The position numbers and the translations under genes are program-made. Positions 416-47,100 of a stretch of 64,000 bases of DNA are shown here, in pieces. Origin of the DNA: Kondoa subrosea (Eukaryota). The stretch covers positions 434,001-498,000 of the forward strand of contig BCIN01000006.1 in assembly GCA_039545335.1 (NCBI GenBank), in the 5' to 3' direction. Numbering within the stretch: the first letter of the stretch is position 1; each line of letters opens with the position of its first letter. Under the pieces are notes generated by a model that was given only the letters and a program-made list of their open reading frames with translations, was not told the DNA's origin and ran no database searches.

Positions 416-2188
416 CTAATAACCCGCTGGACCCCTGCTGCCCTGTCTCCTCATAGCAGGTGCTCTTCGGCTATGCATCCTCTTACTGAATATTTTAACT
501 TTGATAGATCGACGTTTCTTGTGTGAGCACTTCTTTTTGCTTGCAGTTGAGGCAGAAGAGGTTGAACCATTGCTGCTGAGTTTCCTGGAGGAAGTAGACA
601 CTGTCAGAGATGTTCCAGCAGGTGAGTAATCCGAGTAGGTATCTGGTGCTCCTTTTTGAGATTCAGACATGCCCAACGAGAACTGCACAAGACAAGTCAA
701 CTAGAACTCTTCCATCCACGATATGAGGCTTACCAATTTGGGTGCATCGCCACTTAGACATTGCTCAAGAGCTGAAGGGATACCAACTGCGTAACTACCT
801 TGACAAGCGTTGGCATCTTTGCAAACACCTTCGAAAGTAGGTTTGTCAACTATTCTTGCACTCCATCAGTAATTATCAATGCTAGCCAGCAGATTGATCT
901 CACCAGAGACGTAGGAGCAAGCATTAGCGCTCTTCTCGGAAAGATCTCCGCCCTGTAAGCAACTCGGCAAGATGAAGTTATTATAAACTTCCTAAGCGGT
1001 CTTACTTACCTTGAATAGAGGGCAAGTAGGTTTCGCGCCTGTCGGACCACCGCTAATGACCAAATCTACGCATGCTTTGAAGGGACTGTTGGCTTCTCCC
1101 GAATTACCTGCCCGTCGCCAAATAAGAAAAGAAGTAGATCGCTCAAGATACAATTTTCACGAACCGGAGCCGAAATATATCCATTGAACACTGTAGAGTA
1201 CGATGAATAAATTAATCTAGTTTCCGTGAAATAGCAAAGGGTGACTAACGTGTATTTGCCATCTTCTAACCAGCCAGGGATTTTGAAAGCGCCAGAGCAA
1301 GCGTTGGACCAACCTTTGGAACCATTGGAATCTGGATGGGAGTATCACATGAACATTTACCATTGCAAAAAGCGAACAGAAATCACCTCCTCCGTCCCAA
1401 TCTCCGCGAAAGATTTAGACCAAGCGCTCTCCGTTGGAAGAATACCGAATACTTACTGTTTGGTTGAGATCCACCGTAAGTCGCATCGCATCCATTCTAT
1501 GGAAAGGATCAGAATCGTAGCATTGGTGGTCCAACCTAATTCACCTGGTTGCAATGATACGAAAAGACCGCAGCGTCGAAAGCGCTTTGATCGCCAGATT
1601 CACTCTGAGGCACAATAGAATATCTAATGAATCCACCGACTGTCAATCTCAATGTCAGTGTTCTATGTCGAAAAGAGGCATGAGGTATGAGAATAGACTG
1701 ACCGTGATTGTTTCTCCACCAGGAAGTTTCAACCTCATCACCACGTTTGTAAGTAGTTTGCTTCTTCATGACATCAGAAGAACAGCAAGTAGGGTTTCCA
1801 GAACTGTTTTCCTCCCTCTTAATATACGGTGTGGATTTCGAGAAACCCAAGACGTACCCGAAGTGCTGTTTCCAATGATGGACTCGAGACGTAGTATTGA
1901 CATAGGGCAAGAACGCACACACAAGAGCTCGTTATGACCTTGGCCATCCTCTGTGGTGATGGGAAAACCAAACTTTTCAGTCAAACGAGAAGCTGTAAGA
2001 CACCATCGAAGTCTATCAGCCTGATCAAGCTGATAGCGCTAGGATGCTCTTACCAGGTGAGATGAGATGAGTGCTTTGACCATGCATATCAAACAAAGCG
2101 ACAATATTAGCATACAGGTTCGTACTCACTGTGCTTGAGCTTTCAGTACCAGACTAACAGCGAGTACGAGAGAAGTGATAGAGAGCAT
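416..2188 (-). CDS. Secreted histidine-brace (LPMO-like) protein, paralog A; multi-exon
   Basis: Manual splicing gives the signal peptide MLSITSLVLAVSLVLKAQA, then HTHLISPASRL...LCHFG...TCC...YKRGDEVETSWWRNNHGGGFIRYSIVP...GWSNACSGAFKIPGWLEDGKYTVQWIYFGSG..NSPFKACVDL, a Cys-rich region, a Ser-rich linker and a basic tail (ORF 416-700). It aligns colinearly with 18493-19962. Confidence 0.8.
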
Positions 2189-3246
2189 CTTGACAGAGTT
2201 CTGAGAGGTATCAAAGAATCAAAGTCGGTCTTTCGTTGGAGATGCAAAGTCAAGATGACTTGTTGACCTGTTGAACAGATATAATGAAAGGATGAGAGAA
2301 GCTCAGAGAGAAAAAGACGTGGTGAATCAAGAACAAGACGAAGCAAAACACAACACAACGATATGAGGCCGAAGCGAAAAGAAACATCGAACTTCCTTTC
2401 TGCATGGACTGTTGTTATGCATGAGCTGAAGATGGCGGTGATGATGATGCTGAGGGCTGTTCAAGCAGGACCGTCTCTGGTTGTGAGGTATACATGATGT
2501 TGTTGTGGAGAGCGACATCGGAATGCAGCAGATTGTAGTAAAATGAGCCATAGAGAGCATTGCAACATATATCGACAGGACTGCACTGACTCATGCTGCG
2601 GTACTTAGACCAGGTTTACTATTGTGCTTCTGATGTCGCTTCCGCTGGCAAGTGCAAGATTCTTGTTCCCAATCATACGTAAGGGTGGGCAAGAAGCGCA
2701 TAAAGGAACCGATTGCCATTGTACAATACAGACAAAGCAAAGAGACAATTGGTATGCGATTGTTTTGGGTGAAATGACCAGGTATTATAGTTGATGCCAA
2801 TGCCAATTGATGAAAGCCAAATTGAGTACAATGACGCTGCACAAGTAAAATTACAGATGCAGAGGGAGGCCGAGCAGCCATTTGAGGACTCTAGCACGGA
2901 AGAAGAAAAGAAAACTCGAGACAGAAGTGGAGACCGAAACTGTCAGAGGCTGCACCTAGATTTTGAGGCAATTTGGCAGGCTTTGCCAGCTACTCCTTGA
3001 TGAGTAGGTAGACGAAATACTGTACTGTATTTGCTCGCTGCAATTGAGCTCACCGAGTCCAAGCTATCATTGAATTCATCGAAACTCCTTCAATAGATTC
3101 CGTCGCGTGTGCATCTCGCTCAAAATCAGTAGCCATAGTCCGTGAACATATTGCTGCTCTGTTTGGGTATCGCTTGACGAGGTATATCGCGGTTACTCTC
3201 CAATCTTTCTCGCGTCGAATATTTTTGTTCACTTACAGCGACTGTC

Positions 3247-4213
3247 ATGCAATCGCCTGATCTCTTCTCACGACCTCTATCATCAAACGTATCCAACATC
3301 TTTGATGAATCGCTCGTAGACAATGATTTAAGGTCAAGTGATGGATCTTTTGCTGCTGCTGTTTTAGAAGATCAAACTGTTCGACTGAGCTTGAATGAAG
3401 CACCTAGAACACCTGGAGCGAATATAATTTATCATGGATCTATGAGATCTGATACTCAACAGCAGCCTGAGCCAGAAGCAGCAATAGCGAGTACAAGTAA
3501 AGAAGTCGAAGCGTCTGGCAGTACTCTGACTGGAGATGAAGAGTTGATACTGGAACGAGATCGCTTGAGATCATTGAATGGGATACTAGAAAACACAATC
3601 ACTACTTTCACTTCAGCTCAAGCCAAAATGAAGGTAAGTCTCTCTCTCTCTCTGTGTCTTTCTGCGTCCATGGGCTGATGAATGAATGAGAAAAGAGGTT
3701 TTCTGAAACTATTGCAACAACTCATGATCTTATGGATCTTTATGTCTCACTCTTATCTCAAGCAGAACACAATCAGCGTTTACTTTTGAACCCAGAGTTT
3801 GAAATGGATAAAGATGTGGAACATGTTCTTGCCACTCGTCGAGCTGAAGAAGAACAAGAGGAAGCGAGGTTAAAAGGTTTGAAAGAGAAAGAGGAGCAGG
3901 AAAGAGTGCGGAGAGAGTTAAAAGAGAAGGAAGAACAGGAAGCTGCTTCGTCGAGAAAAAGTGAGTCCTGTTCGGCCAGGAAACTCGTTCACGCTGATTT
4001 GGATTGCCAGCGGCTCCATCTATATCGAGAGGAACAAGTAGAGGAAGAGGTAGAGGGACAATCAGAGGATCGGTTCCTGTCAAGAAAGCAGATCCAGCAG
4101 CAACATCGAGCATACCTGGTCGAGGCTCAGCAGTCGTTACTGGCGTAAGAGGTGTAAGAGGTCTTCGGTCAAGAGTTGCTACACGCGGAAGAGGAACAAC
4201 TCGAGGCGACTGA
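3247..4213 (+). CDS. DUO1: DASH/Dam1 kinetochore complex subunit Duo1
   Basis: LERDRLRSLNGILENTITTFTSAQAKMK...LMDLYVSLLSQAEHNQRLLLNPEF matches the DASH_Duo1 domain pattern, followed by a coiled coil and an RG-rich tail. Two introns. Confidence 0.8.
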
Positions 4214-4736
4214 TCGATTTTAGTCATTCGAAGTGTTCAAAGTATCGTTTGAAACAGAGCGTATATGCCCGTCAGAAGAATGCTATCATCTCAAGATGGA
4301 TCTAGCATCGCATAATGTCTAAAGCAACACGAAGTGGTCGTACTTGTGTAGGTCTTTGGTTTCGAAATTATTCGAGTACCGCTGACACCTCGTTATGCTA
4401 ATAGATGATCTATAGCTTTGTACAAAGGTTGATAAAAGACTAACAAGCTAGTCATGCATATCTTCGGACTTCATGAAGCTTTGCAAGGGTAGAAGTTTGA
4501 GCATCTGCCATCCATGAGGCAAGATTTTGGAGACAGTAGCGAGACTATTGAAATATGATCTTCAACTGTGCACTGTAGAGCGTTGCGGATGCGATTGAAG
4601 CTGACATCTTGACAACTTTGCCAGACCAGAAAAACAGCACCTTGATCTCGAGCCACGATTTCATCTCTTGTTCACATACCAGCTGGGAGTCGAGCACTCC
4701 ACCCCTGGTTCTCAGACACACACACGATATACCCAG

Positions 4737-9610
<4,874 letters not shown>

Positions 9611-10720
9611 AGTCAGAGTCCTGTAAAGCTGTACATCTGTGTCAATCGTGCATATTGCTGTGGCCTGTAGCAGCTCATCTCTTAGGCAACTCAAACGCAA
9701 GTTGCCCCGCGGAGACTCATAATTTCGCCCGATTTCATCCTTGCACTGTATCTTCCATTTCAAACATGAGCTTGAATCCTCCTGAGACTGCTACTGGTCG
9801 GTTTGGACATTCCACACAGCCAGCATTATATCTGATCCATCGTTAATGACAGGTTTGGTCATTCTGTGAGTTGCCCGCGTAATGCAAAGTGTCTCGTCCT
9901 CAAATGGTTCCGCGACTAACAGGATCGCTACTCTTGAAGCGAAAGATGATGCAGCTGCGACCAAACTGCAGACTATGCTGACCAACAGTCCGTTATAGTC
10001 GCACTTGCCTCGAACCAAGATCTGACCTTCCGTATAGTCAAAGAGGATGCGAAAGCCAACGAGACTGGTACCTTGACTTACAGAACCCGTAGGACGCGGT
10101 ATATATGCCATGTGATTTGGCTCATGATGTACGCTGTCCCACAGAACGACACAAGGATGTCGATACTGGCTTCTCAAACACCTTTGTTGTGTATGAGGTC
10201 AGTCAGAGTACTATGCTAGCCGTATTGTCGCTGATTTCGTATTCTCATTTGCAGGAATACAGGGGCTGTGAGTGCCTCACTGGCGGGTTGAATTCCAGCA
10301 GCGCTGATTGATGTGCGATATAGCTGATGCTGTTAAAGCGTAAGAATGGCCATCGAATGGCTGCCAGAATGCTGATGTTTCCTTTCATTGAACAGCCATG
10401 GCGAAGGTTAGATCACAGTTTTTTCCCTATGACACCATACTTATTTTATCTGTATAGGAAAAGAGTTCAAGAAGCTCATCGAAGCAGTACAGAGCGAGCA
10501 GCTCGCTACTGTAGACATCAAGTAAGAAAGCCCCGCGTGTTCACTCTGCTTGCTGATGTGGTGCTTGCTTCTAGATTCTTCCGTAGGTTGTGTGACAATG
10601 TTTTAGGGTGCTGCTCATGCCTTTGTGCTGTATTCAGAGGAGTTCTAAGCCAGATTGAATTATATTGTATGTTGAACGCTACAGTACACCGAGAGTCTTG
10701 CGCAAGGAAATGTCTCAATA

Positions 10721-11992
10721 CATGAGCTATCATGTGATCAGTATTCCAATGTCCTTGTACTGGAGGCTCGCAATCCGGAGCAAGAAATGACAGGGTGACG
10801 CGATCCTTACGTAATCATGTCGAATCAGCAAATTGTTCTTGTCCTGCTTTGATCATTCCAATTATCCAGCTGAAACTCTCAAACAGCCTCAGATTCGATT
10901 CAAGTGGGCTTTCAGCCGAAGTAACTAAAGCCTCATCCTTGATTCTGACCCATACCAGTTCTAGCTGCTCAATATGTCTAGTGACCAAACATCTCAACCG
11001 AGTACCAGTGGATCTTACTTGCCCTTCTCTGCTGTAAGTAACGATCTGAATTCTGGCTTGTCGCTGTGTTCTGATATGTTTTCAGGTCTGCGAGCATTTG
11101 CATGGTGAATCGCTTGTTGCCTCTTTAGGCTTAATATTGAATTGATCTTAGCTGTTCATGCTTACGCGCATAACCCTGCCAAGCAAATTGAGGCTCACCA
11201 TTACTGTCATTGCATTGCGCCAGATCAAAGACAATGTAAGCTTTCCGATATCGCTCTAATGATTACGAAGATGAAGCTGTGGCAGGTGTATTGTATGACT
11301 CGGATGCGGCTAATGCACGATTGATCGGCATAGAATATATGGTTCATGAAGATCTTTTTGCTGTTCGTTCGGTCTTCCCATCTATTATCATTTTGCGCTG
11401 ATAAAGATACAGACTTTCGATGAGGAAGAAAAGAAGATGTGGCATTCACATGTGTGAGTGTGTCAGCAACTGATCAATTGAGTAGAACTGGAAAATAACG
11501 ACAGGTATGAAGTCAAATCGGGTATGCTTGTCTTAATCAAGCCAACACTAGTACCGGAAACAGTATGGGAGGCGGCTGAGAGCAAAGCTCTTGAGCCAAT
11601 CATGCGATGGTCAGATATTGTACGCTGCGATTGATCATTAAGCTGATTCATCAATCAGGTATGGCAAAGTTTATCATTTCTGCGAACCAGGTAAGTGGAG
11701 TCTTCTTCAGCGAGCATACAATCTCAGAGATCATAGGCGGAATGCCCTTTGGTCCGCCAAAACTGATGACCAGCGTGACGAGCGAAGAAATGATGGACAA
11801 AGAGTTGATCAGGAAACGCAACGAAAGAATGGGAATCGACATGGAGCATAAGAGAAACATAAGAGCGCACTTTATAGAGCCAAAGATAGATCCAAGTAAG
11901 TCCCTTGTGAGCGAAGCATGAGACAAAGCTAAAGCTCGATCTCAGTGGCTGACAGAGCTGGAGAATGGTTGAAGAGCAATCAATCTCAATAG
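10721..11992 (+). CDS. DUF1264 / oil-body-associated-protein-like protein (5' end uncertain)
   Basis: Spliced exons give HAYAHNPAKQIEAHHYCH..RQC.LYDSDAANARLIGIEYM...EEEKKMWHSH.YEVKSGML...YGKVYHF, the DUF1264 signature. Confidence 0.8.
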
Positions 11993-12021
11993 TCATGCAG
12001 TCTAACATCTAGCGCTTTCTT

Positions 12022-15000
12022 TCAATTGCTCCTAAGCAGTCTTAGTTCCACTCTGGTACTCCCTATTAATCAGGACCAGGTTCAGCTGGTCTGCAATCCA
12101 CTGAAATCGAGAGACTTACCTCAATGCCATCATTGCTTCTTCAACCCTGCGATAAGAGGCTTCAAGATCGGCTCTCTTCAATGCCACCGCTTTGTTTTCG
12201 CTCAGCCATTCTGCAGCAAGATGACCAAATTCAGGATCTGAAAACTTGAGACCTGACTGGAGTTGAGGGAACAAAGAGTGACTGAGTTCACGGATCAGGG
12301 AAGTATCGATCACTCGAGGAAGCATATCGATTATACGCTTGAAAGCGATCTAGTGTAGTTGATGAGTTCCGAGCAGTAAGACAGAAAGAAAACACTGACT
12401 TGAAGATAAGCCCTAGTTTCGGCCGCGACTTCCAGTTCTTCAATCCATTGGTCAGTAGGTCTGAGTTTCGCCAACTCTTCTTCTTTGACGTTGATTCCCA
12501 AGGCAGCCAAAGCGCTCAAAGCATTGGCGACGTGAGTTTCGGCAGATACTGTGCCGACTATCGTTGACAGCTTTGTATGTCGTCTCTCATTGAAGTTGGT
12601 CAAGAGCTTGTCGCGTGTATCGGAGAAGTAATGTGTATTGGCGGTATAGGGATGCAATTCGAGTTTTGCTAGATATGCAAGCTGGCCAGCTGCCTCCAAA
12701 ACGAGCTGATCGATCAGATCGTTCACCACGGTGCTAGAGTATAGAGTAAGCTCATTATAGCGCCCGATGCGTTATACTTACCTGATGGCGCTAGTGAGAA
12801 AGGTTTCCTTGAACCGGCCAAAGTGTTTCTCTACTAGTTCATCCATTGCTCCCCTTACTTTCGGAACGATATCTTCTAAGCAGACTTGCATTCTATGAGG
12901 CCACTGTTGAGTACTATTCTTGATCAACGCCATTTTCGCTGGCGGTGGCACATCTGTAATGGAGCTTAGTAAATACCGAGACATACTCCTCAGTGCATAC
13001 TATGAGGTAGTTCTCGAGTGCATGAGCTGTGTTTCCGATTAGGCTGCATCAAGAAATGTTCGCGAAGAAATACTCACTCTTGAATGATCTTTCGGACCTG
13101 GTCCAAGTACAGTCGAGGCCTTGGCGTCTTCAATTTATCGGCATCGTCAAATGATTCGATGAGAAAACTAGGTTCGCCTCCTTGTTGCTGAATAGGAGCA
13201 TCGCTCTTTGTCCAAGGCATGTATAGTGGTATCATAGAGCGGACGGAGCTAACGAAAGCAGCATGATCAATCTTGAGAGATTGTACGAAAGCTTCTCGCC
13301 CTTCTGAGCCTTTGACCAGCTCGAGGACTTCGGCGTTGAAATCCAGCAACATTGCCAACAACTCTTGTTGAGGATCGGCGGAGGGAGCTGAAGGTAAGGC
13401 ATTCTTCTCTGCTTGTAGTCGACGTGCATGCTCTTTGACCTCCAGAGATAAACTTGGAAGACTGCAGATGATCGGTCTATTACGCACGATCCAGGATTAA
13501 GCAGCATTGTCGACATACCGTTCGTTGATTTTGCGCGTGAGCAGCTCGCTCAAAGTTGCAACAAGATTGATTGTACCCAATTTTGAGGCAGTGTCAGAAG
13601 AGCGGCTGAGTGTCGCCCAAGGTTCGACAGTCTGAAAGAAGGTTGCTTCAATCTTGCGAGCTTCCGCGTGGGAGATATCGTCCTGGAGCTCTTTTAGATT
13701 TGGCTGACGAGCGACCTATTGAAAGTATTCGATACCGATCACAACCCTGTAGGTATTACTTACAAAGCAACCATGCACCAGTTTTGGCTTTTGATTTAAG
13801 ATGACTGGCATCCATTTGCGGTCTTCGCCAGTCTGGAGTGTATCAGGCTTAGTGAGTATGCCTAAGCGATCCATTAGAATTGGATCATCGAAAAGAGGAC
13901 TACGAACGGATAGTTCGTTGACCTTCCGGATCGACCTTTCCTGCGATGGACACAGCTGCTTGATTTTCCAAATCATCTGAATACGCAAATGTCAAGATAA
14001 TGCTAAAAAAGGAGTACACAACTCGACCCGACCTTTCATCGTTATAGCCAGCAAGATAATACAGTTTTCGTCTTTGATGAATTTGTCGACAAGCCCTTTG
14101 ATCAAGACAACTTGACGGTCGTCTCCACTCTGGATGATACCAGGTAAGTCGACCAAAGAAAGATCGACGACATCCGGACCACTAATGTAAACTGATAGAC
14201 ATGATTAGGATCACAGAGAGCGTGTGCAGACGAAGACTAACCCATGACCATATTCTCGCTGAACTCGTATTGACATGAAGACTCGAGAGGCGCTTTGCCA
14301 TCTTCGAGCTTATCGATATCCAAGCTCTTGAACTTTTCTGGTGCGACTGAAGGATTCAATATAGCAAGTTGAGCACGTCGTAAGATCTGGGCGACCATTC
14401 TTGGATCAGAAGTGCGGTCAAAAGGAACATTCTTGGTGATATCCAATTGAGTATTGTTGCGGTCGTCAACTTCGAACCGAAGCGAAACTTCGCATAGCCA
14501 TGGCGCATCTTTGTGTGACATCTCGACGTCTATTCAACGAGATTTAGAGATAGTCATTGAGCACCTCGCAGGTAGCATACCAGTCGGGCATCGGGTACAA
14601 GTGCCTGTAAAACATTTAAGGCAGAAACAGGCGAAACGTAATGAAGATCATACCATCAGCCCTTGGTAGATTGATCTAGAGCATCGTCAGCTTGAAAAAA
14701 TGCTAGCGAGTCATCCGACTGACACCGGAGATACCTGCATTAGATTAGAATAGATCTGATTACTTATGGCAAGTTTCTCTCACCTTCAATGAGAGAGGAT
14801 TTGCCAGCACTTTGATTGCCAATAACGGCAATACGAGGCTATTCAGGAAGATTGCAGTCAGGTTATGCATCCTTCGCTCAGTCTTGCCTACCAAGCTAAT
14901 GTTGAGGTTGCTCTCTACACCTGATGCCCGAATGCGATCCATAAGCTTGTTGAGCTGTCCTTGACGAAGAGCATAGTTGGAGCTGCTGAGCGACTTGATT

Positions 15001-15098
15001 GGATCCTCATGAGTGCCGTTGCTTTCGTGCTTGACACCATTGACGTTTGCTTTATTGGGTTTGATCTCTGTGACCATCTTCCTTCCCTTCTTGGTCAT
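12022..15098 (-). CDS. Mx-like dynamin-superfamily GTPase
   Basis: G1 PRIAVIGNQSAGKSSLIE, G2 GTCTRCP, G3 LVDLPGII and G4 GILTKPD are present. A middle stalk follows, then a GED-like C-terminus (HPYTANTHYFSDTR; EVAAETRAYLQV..FKRIIDMLPRVID). Confidence 0.85.
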
Positions 15099-15375
15099 GC
15101 ACGAGAAGAAAGACAGAAATTGAAAGATTCAAATTTTCGCTTCACATAAAGCCGCAGCAAAAGAAGGCGAAGAAAGAAGCCTAGCAAGCGTTGTGCGGAT
15201 ATAGCACGAAGGAAGAACAATTGACAGATTAAAAGAGAAACAATTGTCCGAGTGCAGACAATTGCTGCAATGACAAGGGCAATGAGAGCAGGAGATTGGA
15301 GAGAGTGCAAGTGTGAGCAGCCAAAACATCGCGAACTTCGGCTCCTTGCATCCATCAACAATCACCTTCAACACA

Positions 15376-15990
15376 TTACTGCATCACATCTCGGACCATC
15401 GCAGAATCCAGGTAAGCTCTGACTTCATCGAACTTGCTTCCGTTCCATCTGAGGACCCAGCAATAGCGATTATCAAACCTATATTTACTGTCAGAAAAGC
15501 GAATCATGAATCTTAAACTCACCCTGTGCCATTCTTTCCTTTCGGAACCGACCCATCGGCAGTCACTAGCAGCTCAGTTTAGCGAGAGCCGATCCACAAG
15601 CAGCCTATTGCGTACCTGCTTTTAGTTCGACTACAGCATAATCTCCAGCTACTATGGGCTCGGCGATCAAGGATAGCCGAATTTGCTCCTACTAGAGCGT
15701 GAAAGGTAGTAAAGTTTGAAGAAATAGGATGTACAGTCAGCTTCTCGCCCAAAGGCTTGAATGTAGCCTCTTTGAAGCTATCAACAGAGTTGTAATGACC
15801 AGCTAGAGGATGAGACTTGATCTTTGGATTTGTAACCGTCTGCAAGCAATTGTGAGCAGAAGAACAGAAGCATCGCAGGATGACCGACCCAGCTGACATC
15901 TTCCGCAACATGTGCAAAGAACTCGTCAGATTTCCCAACTGACAATCCAGCAAACATAGACTTGACGCTCTCGGGTGTGAGTTTCGACAT
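15376..15990 (-). CDS. SnoaL/NTF2-like (ketosteroid-isomerase-like) small protein
   Basis: FFAHVAEDVSW.V..HPLAGHYNS and C-terminal FDNRYCWVLRW....DEVRAYLDSAMV are typical of SnoaL-like proteins. Confidence 0.75.
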
Positions 15991-16455
15991 TCCGTTCAAC
16001 GGGAATCAAAGAGAGAACAGATGGGAGACAGAGAGACAGTAGACTGATACAAAAACGAATCAACAAGCGGACTCCGGAGCAGGTCAATAGCTGACTTCGA
16101 GCTTTGCAATCGCGTTTGATTCAAGGCAGCCGGACAATCTCTTTCAGCAGCGCGCTAAACAGAGATGCTTGGAATTCTGCAGAAAAGAATTAGAAGAGCT
16201 ACGCAAGACAGTCACGGTCTCAGACAACCTCCATTCATCGAGCTCTGGAGTAGCTCTTGACCAAAGTCGACAAACCATGCTCTGTCATCAGTGAACATGG
16301 ATAGTGGATAGCGCAAGCTATTGTACAGATCTATGAACTGTTCAAGAAGCTTGCAGCACATTTGGACTCATTGAATCTCCGGCTTTACGTAATACTTTGC
16401 TTTTACGTGTTCTGTCGCTTCTCTGCTTCTTTTCTCGCACAGTGAAGACCTCATC

Positions 16456-17524
16456 ATGTTGAAAGACAGCGCCTTCATCACACGCTTGCCTCAAGAAGTT
16501 TTGCTCTTGCTTCGGCCTTATCTGTCCATTGCATCTTTAGTGCATCTCTCACGCAGCAATCATTTCTTGCGCCAGATCTTCTGGGAAGAGAATGCTGTCA
16601 AAGCTGCTTGCTTTGCTAGAGGTGTTTCTCGCCCCCTGTCAGAGCTGTCGAAATCGAACAAGAAACCTCAAATCCCTGACTACCGAACACTGGCAGTAAT
16701 CATGGTCCATCATGTGGTGACGAAGAAATGCATTAATGTGCCACGATGTTATCAATCGAGACTGCGGTGAGTATATTACCGCCAGTGCATAAGCAAACAC
16801 TGATAATAACGTTCCAGGCGATTACTTCAAGACACTCATCACGCGCGAAATGGCTTCCAGTATGTCTCAAGATGAACTTCCTAATTGGTTCAGCTCAACC
16901 AAGAAGATTTGCATGAGTTCTTACCGCAAGTTGAAAGACGGAGAACTATTTCTACGTTTAAATCAAGATTACATTCCAAGCGAATTCAAAGACAGTAACG
17001 GGTCGTACGATGAACTCGATTGGGTTCCTCTGCTTGATCACCCACCTGTTGCTTATTCACACTGCACCGATAAACCTATTCTGGAATTTACTTTCGCCGG
17101 ACCTAGACCATGGTTCGGTGAAATGTACAATGAAGAGGGCTGTACAAATCTGGACTATGTACAGATCTTGTTGATCGGTAAGCTGTCACGGTAAATATCT
17201 GTGTTCAAAGCTGATACCGTCATACAGGCATTGGCGGAATTCTACGAAGAGAAGCAAATGTGATGCTGCAAATACGTGATTGCAGAGACATAAAGCAGTA
17301 CGTGCAGCAACTCAACATTCATGGCAATTCACACGCGATGCAAGATCCTGAAGAATTGGCTCGAGTGATTACTGTATTGGGTTCGCAGTATGTGCGTTGA
17401 CTATTTCTCTTATATCATGGAGAAGATCTCATTGGTTCCGTTGTAGCTGGGTGATAGAAGGCATTTCACTCATTTTCACAAATTGAACCGCGATCTCGTT
17501 TGTGATGCTCACTTCAATAGCTGA
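16456..17524 (+). CDS. F-box-like domain protein
   Basis: N-terminal ITRLPQEVLLLLRPYLSIASLVHLSRSNHFLRQI fits the F-box consensus. Three introns, and the remainder is unrecognised. Confidence 0.6.
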
Positions 17525-18492: not shown

Positions 18493-19962
18493 ATGCTTTC
18501 TCTATACACTCTCGTCTCTGCTGCAGTCCTGGCGACTTCAGTGCAAGCCCACACCTACCTTATCACTCCTCCTAGTCGTCTCTCAGTACTCAAGAACATT
18601 GGCACTTCAACTGAAGATGGTACAGGAAACGGTGCGGGTCTTTGTCATTTAGGGTGAGTCAGCATTCCAATTCTAAACCTCTTGGTTCGATCTGATCCCT
18701 ATGTACACAGAGACGGCACGCAAACTTGCTGCACTTCACAAACTATGGGAGGTCAAATGAAGACTTATCAACGTGGTGTAAGTGTATAGCCACTAATTTT
18801 CAAAGGAGGTCTGTGCTCATTGTCACTTTGTTCATCGACAGACCGAGATCCCAACAGCATGGTGGAGAAACAATCACGGTAAGTTTTCATCGCAATAAGT
18901 GGAAGTCCTTTTATCTGATGCATTTGCGAATAGTCGGAGGTTTCATCAGATATTCTATTGTTCCGATAGCCGATTCTGGTTCTCAAGATGCTTTCGACGC
19001 TGCTGAGAACATGTTGTCATACGAATGCAATCAAGTTGGTTGCTCTGCTACTTATGGCGGATCTTCGCCAAACAGTAAGTCTCGCATCATTTGAGATGAG
19101 CTTTGACCATAAGCTGATGTCATTCATCAATAGACTGGAACGGAGGTGATAGCGCAGGTAGCAAAGGATGGTCAAATGCATGCTCTGGTGCTTTCAAAAT
19201 TCCTTACCATCTTAAAGTGAGTGGCTACTATTGCACTCGACTGATCGTGTTTGATTGAAGTCATCTTACAGGACGGACAATACACTGTTCAATGGGTGTG
19301 GTTTGGTCAAGGAAACGGAAACGAGGCAAACTCTCCTTTCCAAGCATGTATCGATCTGAACATCAGCGGTGGTCCCAGTAAGCTTCCGTAATGAGCTTTG
19401 TTTCTAGCATACTCATTCCATGGCAGCTGGCTCTCCTCTCAAATGCCCTCTATGGAAAGGAGGAGATCTTTCGGAAGCTGGAGACAATGTTTGCACTTTT
19501 GTTTCAGTCAACAACCCAACATACCAGTGAGTATCTCGCTCTTTTCTTCAAATGCAGCAACTGATGAATTTCGTTAGGGGCGTATGCAAAGATGCCAACG
19601 CATGCCAAGGTGGTTACACAGTCGGTGTGCCAAAAGGTCTGCAAGATTGCGTCAACGGCAACAATCCTTCTACCTTCCCTCTTGCCATGGTCGCTGCTCA
19701 GTCTGGCGTACCGAACACCTATGCTTCTTACTCACCAGATGGTTCAGCTGCTTCTTCTGGAGGTTCTTCTTCTTCGGGTTCATCTTCAAGCAATTCTACT
19801 TCCTCTTCTTCTTCTTCCAATGGTTCATCAAACAATGGTGGTGGTTCGCTTACCGTTCAAACTGGAAAGAAGAAGTGCAGCGCCGGCTCAAAGAAGCGCA
19901 GACACTATGGTCGTCGATCTCACGTGCGTCGCGAAGGCTTGGAATTCGCTTACGATCATTAG
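18493..19962 (+). CDS. Secreted histidine-brace (LPMO-like) protein, paralog B; multi-exon
   Basis: Signal peptide MLSLYTLVSAAVLATSVQA, then HTYLITPPSRL...LCHLGDGTQTCC...YQRG.EIPTAWWRNNHGGGFIRYSIVP...GWSNACSGAFKIPYHLKDGQYTVQWVWFGQG...NSPFQACIDLNISGGP, a Cys-rich region, a poly-Ser linker and the basic tail KKKCSAGSKKRRHYGRRSHVRR. Confidence 0.85.
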
Positions 19963-20879: not shown

Positions 20880-22598
20880 GAGAGCTTTATAGCCTACAGC
20901 GCCAATTCCTGAATCGAAAGCTGTTCCCATAGCCAAGGCACCAGCTTGAATTGGGAAGACTGGTTGTTCGACTGGTGCTCTGTGGACAAGAGGACGGAAT
21001 CAGTAATAGCTCGAAAGTAGAGAAAAAGAGAAAACAAACCTTTCGACTCTCATGTCGATATCGTTTTGAAGATTCGCTCCAACTGCTCGAACTCCTTGCA
21101 TTCCAGTATGAAGTACCATCATTCTATCAAGGAAGTCTATCAGTTGCAGTTATAAGAAAGCCAAGAGGTGAAGACTAACCTATTGATAGTGCCTTCGTAA
21201 GGCATGAGCTTGATCGCATTATCCGTTGCATTAGTGAGAAGTGAGTTGACGTTGCCAGTAGCTGAATTAATGACGTTTGAACCAAAGCCAAGAGTGTCGC
21301 CTAAGCAGCTGGTAAGTCCTCTCACGACGAACACCAAATCAAAGGCCAGTTGGGAAGGACGTTGCTCAGTAGAAGGAGTAGCTTGAGCGACGACGGCTGG
21401 AATGAGAGTAGCAGGAATGCTTTGTACGACAACAGGTTGAGTAGGAGCTGGAGCCGGGACTTGAAGAACAGGCTGAATGGGGATAAGAGGCTGATGAGCA
21501 GGGATGACGAGAGCAGGAAGATCATTTTTAACTTGAGTTTGCGCAGCTGGAACGACTTGAGCGACTGGTACTTGAACGAGTGGTTCAATCAAAGCAGCCT
21601 GAATAAATTGCTGAACCTGAAACGAGAGATCAGCATACCAGAATGCAAGGTTCAGTAGCAAGCTTACCTCTTCTGCTTCCTCAGTTTCAGCAGTGACAGC
21701 TTCTTGGATTTCAGCTACAATGGCTTGCTTTGCACCTGTATAATGGCCAGACAAGGTCAGATTTGGTTGAGAAAGCATAAGGAAAGAACGAACGTTTGGC
21801 AGCACTAGCAGATGACTCTGCTTCTTCTTCAGAGTCGCGTCGCTTGCCTTTGCCTAAAGAGGATGTACCCATTGTAAGCTCCTGAAATCAGACAATTAGA
21901 TCAAGCAGGCAGAGATATATGCGAAGAACACACTGAAAGGAAGAAAACTTGCAAGACATGAAGTACATGACCATCAGGAACTTTGCCAGCTTCAAGTATC
22001 GCTGAATTCCAGCGCGCAACCTACGCACAACGATCAGCCTCTAGAAAGAAAAATGCCGTAGCCAGCCTCAACCAAATCGCGGACTCGAGCAAGATCTTGT
22101 CCACAAGCACCTTTTGTCGATATTGATGCAAAGGCTGCACTTAGCTATTTTGCGTTGGACCAAGCAAAACAACCAAGGCGCCAGAGCTGAAAATAAGGCG
22201 TAAGATATGGGGTATCGTAGACGGCTGCTCGCAAGCATCCGGTTAGGACCATGCCACAAATCAAAAGCCTTCTAAAGGTGCTTGCTTTGAAGGAACCGAC
22301 TCGAGCGCTGGATTTGGCCAAAACTTGCAGTTGCACGCACATTGCTCAGATAAGCTTTGAGATCAGCGTCCGCACGAGGATTTGCCTTGAATTGATTGAT
22401 GCACCAGGAGACGTTGCCGAGCATTAGTAGGCCATTCGCGACTTCACCTTGATTTACAGAGTTGATGATCAGAGCGAAAAGATGTTGTAAGATTTCAGGT
22501 GCTGGTGACGATTTGATGATATCGAAGGCTTCGCCGAGAAGATAGACCTTTTCTTCAGGGAGAGGACGTGGAGCAGGTATGGTCTGGAGGGAAAGCAT
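20880..22598 (-). CDS. Hypothetical protein with a Pro/Gln/Val/Ala-rich middle region (exon structure and 3' end uncertain)
   Basis: Coding-like ORFs 22272-22598, 22068-22259 and 21140-21805 lie on the same strand and are separated by GT-AG intron-like gaps. A CT-rich leader lies upstream. No family recognised. Confidence 0.4.
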
Positions 22599-44144: not shown

Positions 44145-47100
44145 TCATAGTGCTGTGCCATTTGCATTGGCATGTTTCTTCGCTTCTTGCATCAATGGCT
44201 ACATAACGAAATCAGGAAAGATACTTGTGACGTTCAGAACAACATACAGCGAAAAACTGTATCAGAGCAAAGGAAGTGAGTGAATCAGTCTAAATTGAAT
44301 CCTTTCAGTCGCTGCTGTACCTTTTTGAAGACCTTCCCGCTGCAGAACGTACATCAATGTTGTTTCCAGGCTGCTTCAGACATGAACCTACTCCGGAGCA
44401 GAAGCTAAAGCGGCCAAGAATTCCTGCCCTTTGGCTTGAGGGTAGCCAACGGCAGGGAAGGTGACATTGATCATTTGTTGGCGGAAGTCATCTCCTCTTC
44501 TTTGTTCCAGAGCTTTGAGCAGGTTGGAGATTTCCCCTAGAACCTAAATCGCGCAAGTTTCATCGACTTATGGCGAATTGAGTTCGTGATGAACATACAT
44601 TGAATGACTGGGCATCTCCATAATCAAAGTCTTTCTTTAACGGAATAGTGAAACAAAGTTGCAAAGGCTGTTGGTAGTAGAACTGCTCGAAATTGGGTAT
44701 CGTTGCCGCTACTGGTGTTTTACCGTTGGCGACTGTGGAAGGATCGATCGGTGGAATCCATGTTAGAGCCATACGTGTTAATACTAGTAAACCTGCTCGG
44801 GTATCAGCTGGGAATTGATGCGATGTCGTGTAATGCAGAATGCTGTTGATGAAGTTTTCGAAATAAGGTTTGTTGGCTGAGAGAACAATCAGGCTGCGAC
44901 CTAGGCTTGTGTGTGTACTAAGGCTCACATTCTGCAAGGAATATGTCTTGCATGTTCGCGTTGAAGATGGAAGTAATGATGCTGAAATAAGCGCGGCGCA
45001 ATTCGGAATGTTGAAAAGCCTCATCGGTACCTTGAGGAGTCGGCTCAAGATGAAGATAGACGCGCGCAAAGATTTGGTAGATGATGGCTTGTAAGAGGGG
45101 TATGCAATCCTCCTAAGTAAAACCAAATCAGTAAAAAGAAGCTGTAAAATTTTGGATGCCTACCTTGTAGCGATTGAGGAGAAGCGAGAGGAAAGGAAGG
45201 AAGTCAATGAGCTCTTGAGCTTTCATTTGACCAATTAGACAAGCAATGAGCGGCTCAATGAACGGTAGCACGCTCTTGCCGAGTGTCGCGACAATGATCT
45301 TGAAAGCGCCGAGGGCCTGTGAGTGAAATGCCAGAAGTCAGCACTTTAAGACTGCTGAAAGCACATTCACTCACAGCTTCTCGAATGATCAGTACTCCGC
45401 TCATCTGTTTTAACGCGTCGATGATTGTCTGAGTAGCAGCCTTGAAGATTTCCACCCAAGCCCCACTGGCGGATTGCGTTGTTGAAGAGAGAGAAGGGAA
45501 ACCTTTCGCTAGATTCCCGATGGCCAGAATATAATGATGCAACCGAAGAACAGAATGCAAATCTTCCACAGTTGCGATAGTTGTCTTGATATTGGCTTTG
45601 AGTCCAGCAAGTAATTGATCCATCAAGACCTTAGCATTCTCTCAGCTAAATGTCAATACTTCGGACAATCTCAACTTACCTGCAAGATAGCTGCTTGTTC
45701 TTGGGGAGATCGCTGCATGGTGTGGACAAGAGTCCCGACGCATTCAAACAGATATAGCTGGCTGTCGAATCGACTTGCGCCATGTGCAGCTTTGACCAGT
45801 GGATCACCTTCTGTCGAGTCGGCTGCCGGTAACGGTTCCACTTCGATGACGAGCAGATCCTGTATGTATCAACCTGTTCAGGCACTTGATGTACACAAGC
45901 ACGAATCAGGTTACATACCTGAACAGCATTGAGGATTTCAGTAATAAATTCCGGAGATACGTTCTTCTGGATCTGCTCTTTCGCATAGAAGATGAAACGA
46001 TGAAAGAGGTAGAAGCAGCGTGCTCTGGCTACTCTAGATGTCTGGTGCAGACCTCTGTAAGACAGACAAACGAAAGAATCAGCCTAAGCCAAAATTCGTG
46101 TCGAATTGCCATACCTTTGGTCTAAGAAGGCTTGAATAACAGTGGGGATAGGAGAAGCGTTGATGATGAAGAAATCATGGTACCGCACAACGCATTCGAA
46201 GAATTGCAATGGCACGGAAGGATGAGGAAAGCTAGAGATGGAAGATTGAGTTACTCGCAGAACAAGCTCTCCGAGTGGTGAAAGAGGATATTGCGACAGA
46301 GCGGCAAGCTCTTCTTGAGAAGTTCCTGCGGCTCGCTTCTTGTTTGTATTAGGTGGAAGAATAACGAAGGAGGTTGGTAGAACGCCATTGCCTGTGAACT
46401 GATCAATTTTGGGTTCAATCATACAGAAGTTTTGCGTACCTTTCAGTGCCTCGCCGTAGAGGTAAAGTACAAAGAGTACAAGTTCAACTTGTTGCCAAGA
46501 TAGAGAAGCTTGACCGCCATTGTCCAAAGTATCCAGCACGCCATGAATCACGGTGCGAACATTGCTGACGAAGAGTTCTTCCGACAAGACCGCAATAGCG
46601 TCAAACAAGGTCTTGAGGTTCTTTCTCATCTCCACAAAATGAGCAGCAGCTTCTTCATCTTCGTCATCATCTCCTCCACCCCATTCTTCTTCTGTTGCAT
46701 ACTGCATCTTCTTAATGACTACTTGGAAAAGGGAGTTGAGGAAAGAAGTCTTTTCCGGTGTTAAATGACCTTGCAAATCTTTCTTCTTATCTTTCTTGAA
46801 CAAAGTCAAATAGCTTGCAGCCAAGGGGATCACAGCAGAAGCAGTGTCATCATATTCATCACTGAGGAATCCAAGGAGTAAATCTTGAAGAGCCATCAAA
46901 AGTTCTCTACCTTCTTTCCTTTCTTGTTCCGAAATCGTTCCATCTTCAGCAATTTTAGCTAATTCACTTCCAACAACATTCAAGAGTTTTGCTAATTTTT
47001 CCCTGAAAACTTCTTCTGCTTCAGGTACGTCTTCTTTACTTGCTTTCTTGCTTTCGTTTAATGCGGAACAAAGGTTTGTCAAGATAGAATGCAAGTTTAG

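Follow-up and report, generated by a model that had tools for sequence, protein, structure and literature searches.

Two Anciently Duplicated Genes Predicted to Encode Secreted Histidine-Brace Proteins with an LPMO Fold

Within the window, i.e., the whole 64,000-nucleotide stretch of Kondoa subrosea DNA analyzed here, lie two divergent genes (paralogs A and B) that probably encode secreted mono-copper histidine-brace proteins of the LPMO fold, belonging to an unclassified, eukaryote-wide family. The observed basis of this explanation is the structure of the genes, their paralogy, the selection acting on them, the conservation of residues across the family and the fold predicted for a relative that is 63% identical. 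That A and B are real paralogs under selection is close to certain, and the sequences and the modeled fold make a copper brace in both very likely. By analogy with known enzymes, a polysaccharide-oxidizing activity appears reasonably likely, and chitin is a possible substrate that we suggest only tentatively. In His1, the second His, the axial aromatic and the predicted fold, the two proteins resemble LPMOs. The proposal in its fullest form, to which we give slightly less than an even chance, is as follows. A and B would be catalytically active LPMOs of an ancient family, spread across eukaryotes and so far undescribed, in which the second sphere is arranged in a new way (Asn for the gate Ala, and no Glu or Gln beside the axial aromatic). 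The family would have expanded in this fungus to at least eight copies in two subfamilies, some Phe-axial and others Tyr-axial or with a broken brace, and A and B would be secreted as disulfide-linked dimers.

Paralog A occupies positions 416..2188 on the minus strand (ATG at 2188, stop at 416) and encodes 349 amino acids in 14 exons. In the manual model, exons 1-7 are at 2188-2130, 2073-2054, 1992-1919, 1865-1858, 1803-1703, 1639-1545 and 1496-1457, and exons 8-14 at 1401-1387, 1331-1250, 1190-1165, 1107-1010, 952-904, 849-734 and 682-416; all 13 introns are 48-63 nt long and have GT donors. The protein starts with a predicted signal peptide of 19 residues (2132..2188) ending in AQA, whose hydrophobic core reaches a best 10-residue Kyte-Doolittle mean of 2.8; its cleavage site was placed from hydrophobicity and the family alignment. 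The codon of His1 (2131-2130 plus 2073) is split by intron 1, which ends in an AAG acceptor, and the residues that follow match those of the intron-free relatives L038-L042, which are of the A type (see below). Glu22 in mature numbering, part of an EDG motif at 1949..1951, is invariant in the close clade and is a candidate second-sphere residue, a role assigned from the alignment. An 8-nt exon (1858..1865) holds the non-conserved "third His" (1865-1863), and the LCHFG motif becomes visible only once this exon is spliced in. The second brace histidine (mature His68, WxRNNH motif, 1704..1706) aligns with the second His of the AA11 enzyme 4MAH, and the axial aromatic (mature Phe164, 1079..1081) with the axial Tyr of AA11. 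Between them, a 15-nt exon (1387..1401) follows a non-canonical GAG acceptor (intron 1456-1402); its peptide is found in 18/18 intron-free relatives, in one with a one-residue gap. The tail (416..640) is Ser/Thr-rich and ends in a basic stretch, with a lone Cys (529-527) in KKKCS that recurs in 19/19 close-clade sequences; it is a low-confidence region, and the same region has low pLDDT in the model of a relative (P0152). Hydropathy of the tail revealed no hydrophobic stretch at the C terminus.

Paralog B lies on the plus strand at 18493..19962 and, according to the manual model and spliced alignment, encodes 359 amino acids in eight exons (18493-18653, 18711-18777, 18842-18878, 18934-19074, 19134-19216, 19272-19377, 19427-19526 and 19578-19962). 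His1 is at 18550-18552, the second His at 18875-18877, the axial Phe at 19338-19340 and the tail Cys at 19876-19878, all on the plus strand. The protein ends much as A does, with a tail rich in Ser/Thr, KKKCS holding its only Cys, and a basic tip. Both gene models were checked with a purpose-written spliced aligner, in which three database homologs (P0002, P0152 and P0155) were aligned with both loci. P0002 and P0152 gave exactly the 13 introns of A, and P0155 added to these a single further intron within the low-complexity tail, while the seven introns of B were returned by all three homologs. The AAG and GAG acceptors of A were also recovered by this automated alignment with all three, and forbidding the GAG acceptor lowered the score by 37-55 points. 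The splicing of A is thus a prediction from homology. Exon maps of this kind would account for these genes being overlooked by gene callers. Two variants of the splicing of A may be mentioned. Skipping of the 15-nt exon would preserve the frame, and intron 5 (1640-1702, minus strand, 63 nt) has no in-frame stop, such that its retention would add 21 residues directly after the second His.

The proteins encoded by A and B are identical at 199 of 340 aligned columns (58.5%; blastp E 8e-134). As proposed in the original prediction, they form an inverted pair about 16 kb apart: the start codons are separated by 16.3 kb, and the genes, A on the minus and B on the plus strand, point away from each other. 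The expected colinearity was also seen, with the motifs in the same order in both genes, and both copies are intact as predicted, without an internal stop after splicing and, in A, without a frameshift across its 14 exons. The introns after CHxG and after NNH had been said to share their positions; they do so in both codon and phase, as does a third one after SxPN. The statement that A has extra introns holds in that A has 10 private ones, but B also has four of its own. One motif had been misread: the G of "NNHG" lies in an intron, and splicing yields NNH-V-GGF in A and B alike. Intron turnover is very high in the family, with only 3/17 positions common to A and B. In other copies in the genome (L013-L015, L026 and L027), intron positions that nearly coincide, one base apart, are seen both at His1 and behind the second His.

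A self-comparison of the window revealed no third copy besides A and B. The genes between them (3178..17194) are unrelated: DASH Duo1, a Prp16-type helicase, DUF1264, a probable dynamin-like gene (presumably so, judging from its motifs) and an F-box-like gene. An exon of the helicase is 43-50% identical to nearly all of the 120 basidiomycete matches listed, with Microbotryum first, which points to a basidiomycete, probably of the Pucciniomycotina, that has no near annotated kin among those matches. Elsewhere, 10815-10925 and 44294-44461 are similar at the protein level (45% over 29 amino acids, E about 1e-4). Just downstream of B, an open frame of 237 amino acids (21140-21853, minus strand) is rich in Val, Pro, Ala and Gln and has no Pfam match; it possibly encodes another secreted protein. 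When the promoters of A and B were compared, there was no common word beyond chance-level 9-mers, and no copper-element-like motif was found upstream of A.

The histidine-brace assignment draws on a much wider family. P0001 matches 281 representatives (clusters at 50% identity, E up to 0.001, 150 of them listed), and the named organisms, obtained for 6 of 20 entries looked up, were Paraphysoderma (two), Catenaria, Neoconidiobolus (two) and Pythium, with in addition one Porphyra transcript. The members looked up were annotated as hypothetical or bore an automatic label only. Judged by these sequence matches, the family is spread over chytrid-grade and entomophthoroid fungi, an oomycete and a red alga. 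Three 55-amino-acid members of the P0001 cluster (P0151, P0153 and P0154) were unrelated in sequence, looked like a clustering artefact and were left out. In an alignment of 136 proteins of at least 200 amino acids together with A and B (138 rows), His1 was present in 104 of the 117 rows spanning the site and the NNH histidine in 126 of 132. The axial position, three before the last core Cys, was Tyr in 98, Phe in 28 and Trp in five of 136 rows, i.e., Tyr or Phe in 126, and 103/117 rows had His1, the second His and the aromatic together. We propose HxxLxxPxxR, WxRNNHxGGF and [YF]xxCxD as the family signature.

In both spliced models His1, the NNH histidine and the Phe are kept, as had been claimed. 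The further claim that this conservation by itself supports a metal site stands in part: the wider family and the fold do favor a histidine brace, but agreement between A and B is weak support, because the close clade shows no variation at 94 of its 256 core positions.

The family is poorly visible to domain databases. Its members reached no Pfam cut-off where tested, P0152 gave no Pfam family, NCBIfam gave nothing near a cut-off for seven proteins, and a Pfam search with five pieces consisting of single exons of genes returned no informative match. At E up to 0.01, Pfam AA9 (PF03443) matched 18/98 members weakly (rows P0002 and P0155 not among them) and DUF7492 (PF24320) also 18/98; LPMO_10 (PF03067) matched 0/98 at E 0.01, AA14 (PF22810) 0/98, and X325 (PF20238) a single member of the 98, weakly (E 0.0017). 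Chitin_bind_1 was carried by 6/98. An Egh16-like family, TrsA (PMC12377627), was considered and set aside, with no Egh16 match among the 98 members. A search of the ESM Atlas yielded only unnamed or sub-0.9 leads, and no account of the family turned up in a literature search that covered few subscription journals and not the CAZy site.

Searched against known structures with a limit of E 10, the family profile matched 32 PDB sequences, all of them AA11, AA9-type or AA16 chains by their listed names. The best was AA11 4MAH (E 4.3e-11; another AA11 gave 1e-9), in which the axial Tyr and both brace histidines, His1 and the second His, fall in register, whereas single sequences reached AA11 only at E 0.013-0.13. 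An AlphaFold2 model of P0152, which is 63% identical to A and 62% to B, was made from a 98-row alignment and had a mean pLDDT of 76, with a low-confidence tail. When it was compared with 48,161 chains, the top 23 matches were all LPMOs or LPMO-like. Z scores in the first structure search were 9.8 for AA11, 9.3 for AA15, 8.9 for AA13, 8.8 for AA9 and for AA10, and 7.3 for X325 and for AA16; AA14 5NO7 gave 7.1, and the first protein outside the LPMOs 6.5. The match with AfAA11B had a Z of 11.1 (rmsd 3.4 over 167 residues, 16% identity), and further AA11 structures gave 10.5 and 10.2. His1 of the model (residue 21) aligned with residue 1 of solved LPMOs in nearly all rows. AA17, the family of pectin LPMOs of oomycetes, had no entry among the PDB matches listed in the profile and structure searches, which bears on neither side. 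Three features of the LPMO superfamily thus appear in A and B: a histidine directly after the predicted signal peptide, a second His and an axial Phe in brace positions in register with AA11, and, to judge from the model, an immunoglobulin-like β sandwich (Z 8-11 to AA9, 10, 11, 13 and 15).

If A and B work as LPMOs do, cleavage of the signal peptide would free His1, and, as in LPMO biochemistry, His1 and His68 would bind a single copper with Phe164 in the axial position; the reduced enzyme would then use H2O2 or O2 to oxidize a glycosidic carbon of a polysaccharide. As a weaker suggestion, the substrate may be chitin or another polymer of the producer's own or a neighbor's wall. Chitin comes to mind because the axial Phe and the Glu in the N-terminal loop recall chitin-active AA10 enzymes, and Glu22 could, as a guess, take a second-sphere role as in SmAA10A. 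In most AA10s an axial Phe accompanies chitin activity, and TdAA15B has one too (PMC5823890); UmAA10, an AA10 from a smut, attacks chitin of the fungal wall (PMC10617569). Because of this pairing of the axial Phe with chitin activity, and because the smut enzyme attacks wall chitin, wall remodeling would be the preferred function. Also more weakly, the lone Cys of KKKCS may link two chains, as in CoAA9A, in which a Cys of the tail gives a disulfide-linked dimer of higher activity (PMC10990093); disordered tails are common among LPMOs (PMC8615602).

The main rival reading is that these proteins are LPMO-like but do not cleave polysaccharides, being instead secreted proteins that bind or buffer copper, as X325/Bim1 does, or oxidases producing H2O2 that aids other enzymes. 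We regard this as unlikely, but as a serious competitor. The brace alone is insufficient for LPMO activity, as stated in PMC12186267 and PMC7924993, and the former presents a second-sphere Glu or Gln as important (Tyr-Glu in AA11, Tyr-Gln in AA9 and Phe-Glu in AA10). A and B lack the Glu or Gln that AA11 and AA9 have two residues ahead of the axial aromatic, the position being Ser (mostly Gly in the family), and their acidic position of YxCxE, which is Glu in 95/136 family rows, is Gln. The Ala typical of the gate in AA10, AA11 and AA15 (PMC5823890) is replaced by Asn, as it is two residues before the second His in 104 of 132 family rows. Conserved candidates for a second sphere are present elsewhere (Glu22, Gln100, Asp119 and Gln148, as picked from the alignment). 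X325 fits the P0152 model as well, at the same Z as AA16 (7.3 each), and in one of the eight copies in the genome the second His seems to be replaced by Arg. X325 members show no polysaccharide activity, and Bim1 serves copper uptake (PMC7924993). Against this reading, the third position is aromatic in 131/136 rows, as in LPMOs, some members carry carbohydrate-binding modules, and no GPI-type tail was found. The best structural matches of the P0152 model, moreover, are active enzymes of AA11, AA9, AA15, AA13 and AA10. By contrast, X325 has Asp as the third ligand and a GPI anchor. We therefore prefer to read A and B as copper enzymes acting on polysaccharide.

It could also be argued that the family is a very divergent branch of AA11 that CAZy curators would file there, which we think improbable. 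AA11 is indeed the best match by both profile and structure (E 4.3e-11 and 1e-9; Z 11.1, 10.5 and 10.2), and the alignment reaches over the C-terminal part of the domain. However, the identity is only 16-20%, and two AA11 structures that are 75% identical give a Z of 31.5 with each other (PMC12186267). The Tyr-Glu pair that defines AA11 is absent from both A and B, and a survey of AA11 peptides came up empty for the genomes of chytrids, zygomycetes and blastoclads (PMC4424831), whereas the present family has named blastoclad members. A family separate from AA11 remains our preferred assignment.

The original prediction had raised the His of CHxG, a third conserved His, as a possible second-sphere or alternative ligand, an idea favored by its presence in 13 of 22 close-clade rows, including A and B. 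We reject it as a metal ligand and consider that role very improbable, because this residue is His in only 4/138 rows of the family alignment and is Ser or Asn in seven of nine A-type relatives (two His, five Ser and two Asn among those that cover the site).

The age of the duplication was judged with relatives from metagenome contigs, a scan of which gave 18 loci of 1.0-1.7 kb out of 268 pattern matches. An uninterrupted frame was present in 17/18, with a single-base frameshift in the other, and because of these frames the sequences suggest that the 18 intron-free loci are most simply spliced transcripts. Ten loci were nearer to A (63-75% core identity; A-type) and eight nearer to B (74-93%; B-type), and the relative L029, also intron-free, was 93% identical to B in the core. 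In an unrooted tree of 19 rows, from which P0152, L032, L035 and L046 were omitted as duplicates or broken, the A-type (11) and B-type (8) sequences split with support of 100/100. When four distant rows were added, the A-type group had a bootstrap of 57 (SH-aLRT 100), and the root was not fixed. Pairwise dN/dS between A and B was 0.18-0.23, which is unreliable with pS at 0.68 and synonymous sites near saturation, so a codon model fitted to sets of relatives was used in its place. This gave an omega of 0.085 for seven A-type sequences, 0.085 for five B-type and 0.081 for the 11 combined, values far from 1; the log-likelihood was -5734 at omega 0.1 and -6301 at omega 1, a loss of about 570 units. 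Because of the split between the two types, the low omega and the near-saturated synonymous sites, we conclude from the sequences that the duplication is old and that both lines are conserved. This agrees with the old duplication under purifying selection envisaged originally. The duplication in itself is ordinary. The suggestion that A is decaying or mis-spliced, with B alone functional, is highly implausible, for although A relies on AAG and GAG acceptors and on 8-nt and 15-nt exons and has a long end branch (0.32), its 14 exons contain no stop or frameshift, its 13 introns are all of 48-63 nt with GT donors, it retains 12 domain cysteines and all site residues, and its dN to A-type relatives is 0.21-0.31 with dS saturated.

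The search for further copies that had been recommended was carried out with P0001, P0102 and P0007 on the assembly that contains the window (18.9 Mb in 27 contigs). It added six loci, of which one is on contig C4 and the other five, including a tandem pair, on C1, so that the genome has at least eight family copies. In spliced models of the six, His1 was present in all, the second His in five with Arg in the remaining one, and the axial residue was Tyr in five and Phe in one. With three database rows, they form a subfamily (SH-aLRT 99) apart from the clade of A and B (99). In L014 (G000:C1, gene start near 2849467, minus strand), which has a long acidic tail, the second brace His appears to be Arg, and this Arg adjoins an intron that matches one of A and B in both codon and phase; by its sequence, L014 is possibly a non-catalytic or differently liganded member. 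L026 (G000:C1:63746-67900) consists of two tandem copies about 2 kb apart that are 65% identical and have 7 and 13 modeled introns. L027 (G000:C4, near 1536350) has its second His on a 6-nt exon and an axial Phe; because this Phe sits in an otherwise Tyr-axial subfamily, an axial Phe probably arose more than once.

The interest of these genes lies in the family, which combines a histidine brace with the LPMO fold, numbers no fewer than 281 clusters, extends from fungi to an oomycete and a red alga, and escapes Pfam. Several LPMO families (AA14-AA17) were found in the same way, each altering the known range of substrates. Second-sphere residues are not universally conserved (PMC12186267), and for the question of what makes a brace catalytic the genome offers a natural test series, with two Phe-axial paralogs, four Tyr-axial copies and one further Phe-axial copy with both histidines, and one copy in which His seems to have become Arg.

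Among known systems, X325/Bim1 shares with A and B the character, predicted for these two, of a secreted fungal histidine-brace protein of related fold (Z 7.3), but A and B have an aromatic axial residue, a larger domain and a hydrophilic C terminus lacking a GPI-type tail. LPMOs with a disordered tail (X283) of the CoAA9A type resemble them in having a Ser/Thr-rich tail with one unpaired Cys and a basic end (PMC10990093), but belong to another catalytic family, and an RxHxR-like motif occurs in only 9/19 close-clade sequences. AA9 enzymes have Tyr with Gln two residues before it, where A and B have Phe with Ser. DUF7492 (PF24320) is the nearest Pfam domain of the close clade, but its match is partial and C-terminal and lies below the curated cut-off where shown (20.6 bits for P0001 against 27); a literature search that covered few subscription journals found no paper on it. 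The chitin-active AA10 enzymes SmAA10A/CBP21 and the fungal UmAA10, and TdAA15B of AA15, have an axial Phe as in A and B. In SmAA10A the second-sphere Glu comes near the start of the chain (E33; PMC12186267), a placement that Glu22, invariant in the A/B clade, might match. AA10 and AA15 are also alike in fold (Z 8-9 to the P0152 model), but they have the gate Ala where A and B have Asn, and the 32 PDB matches of the profile (E up to 10) included no AA10 or AA15 chain. AA18 is reportedly a different, jelly-roll enzyme.

The closest likeness is to AA11 (AoAA11 4MAH/4MAI, AfAA11B 9EXJ/9HDG and AfAA11A 7P3U), whose members, like A and B as predicted, are secreted fungal proteins with a brace at His1 and the same β sandwich; the second His precedes a GG(G) turn, and the axial aromatic stands three residues before a conserved Cys. 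They differ in having Tyr rather than Phe in the axial position, Glu rather than Ser two residues before it, and Ala rather than Asn two residues before the second His. Unlike AA11, A and B have six probable disulfides, and the taxonomic spread differs also. By Pfam score or site residues, then, the family is not AA9, AA10/AA15, AA14, X325 or DUF7492; AA11 is nearest, yet for lack of the Tyr-Glu pair the family is tentatively set apart from it here. Sequence and model together place A and B in a widespread and apparently uncharacterized family of the LPMO fold with an unusual second sphere.
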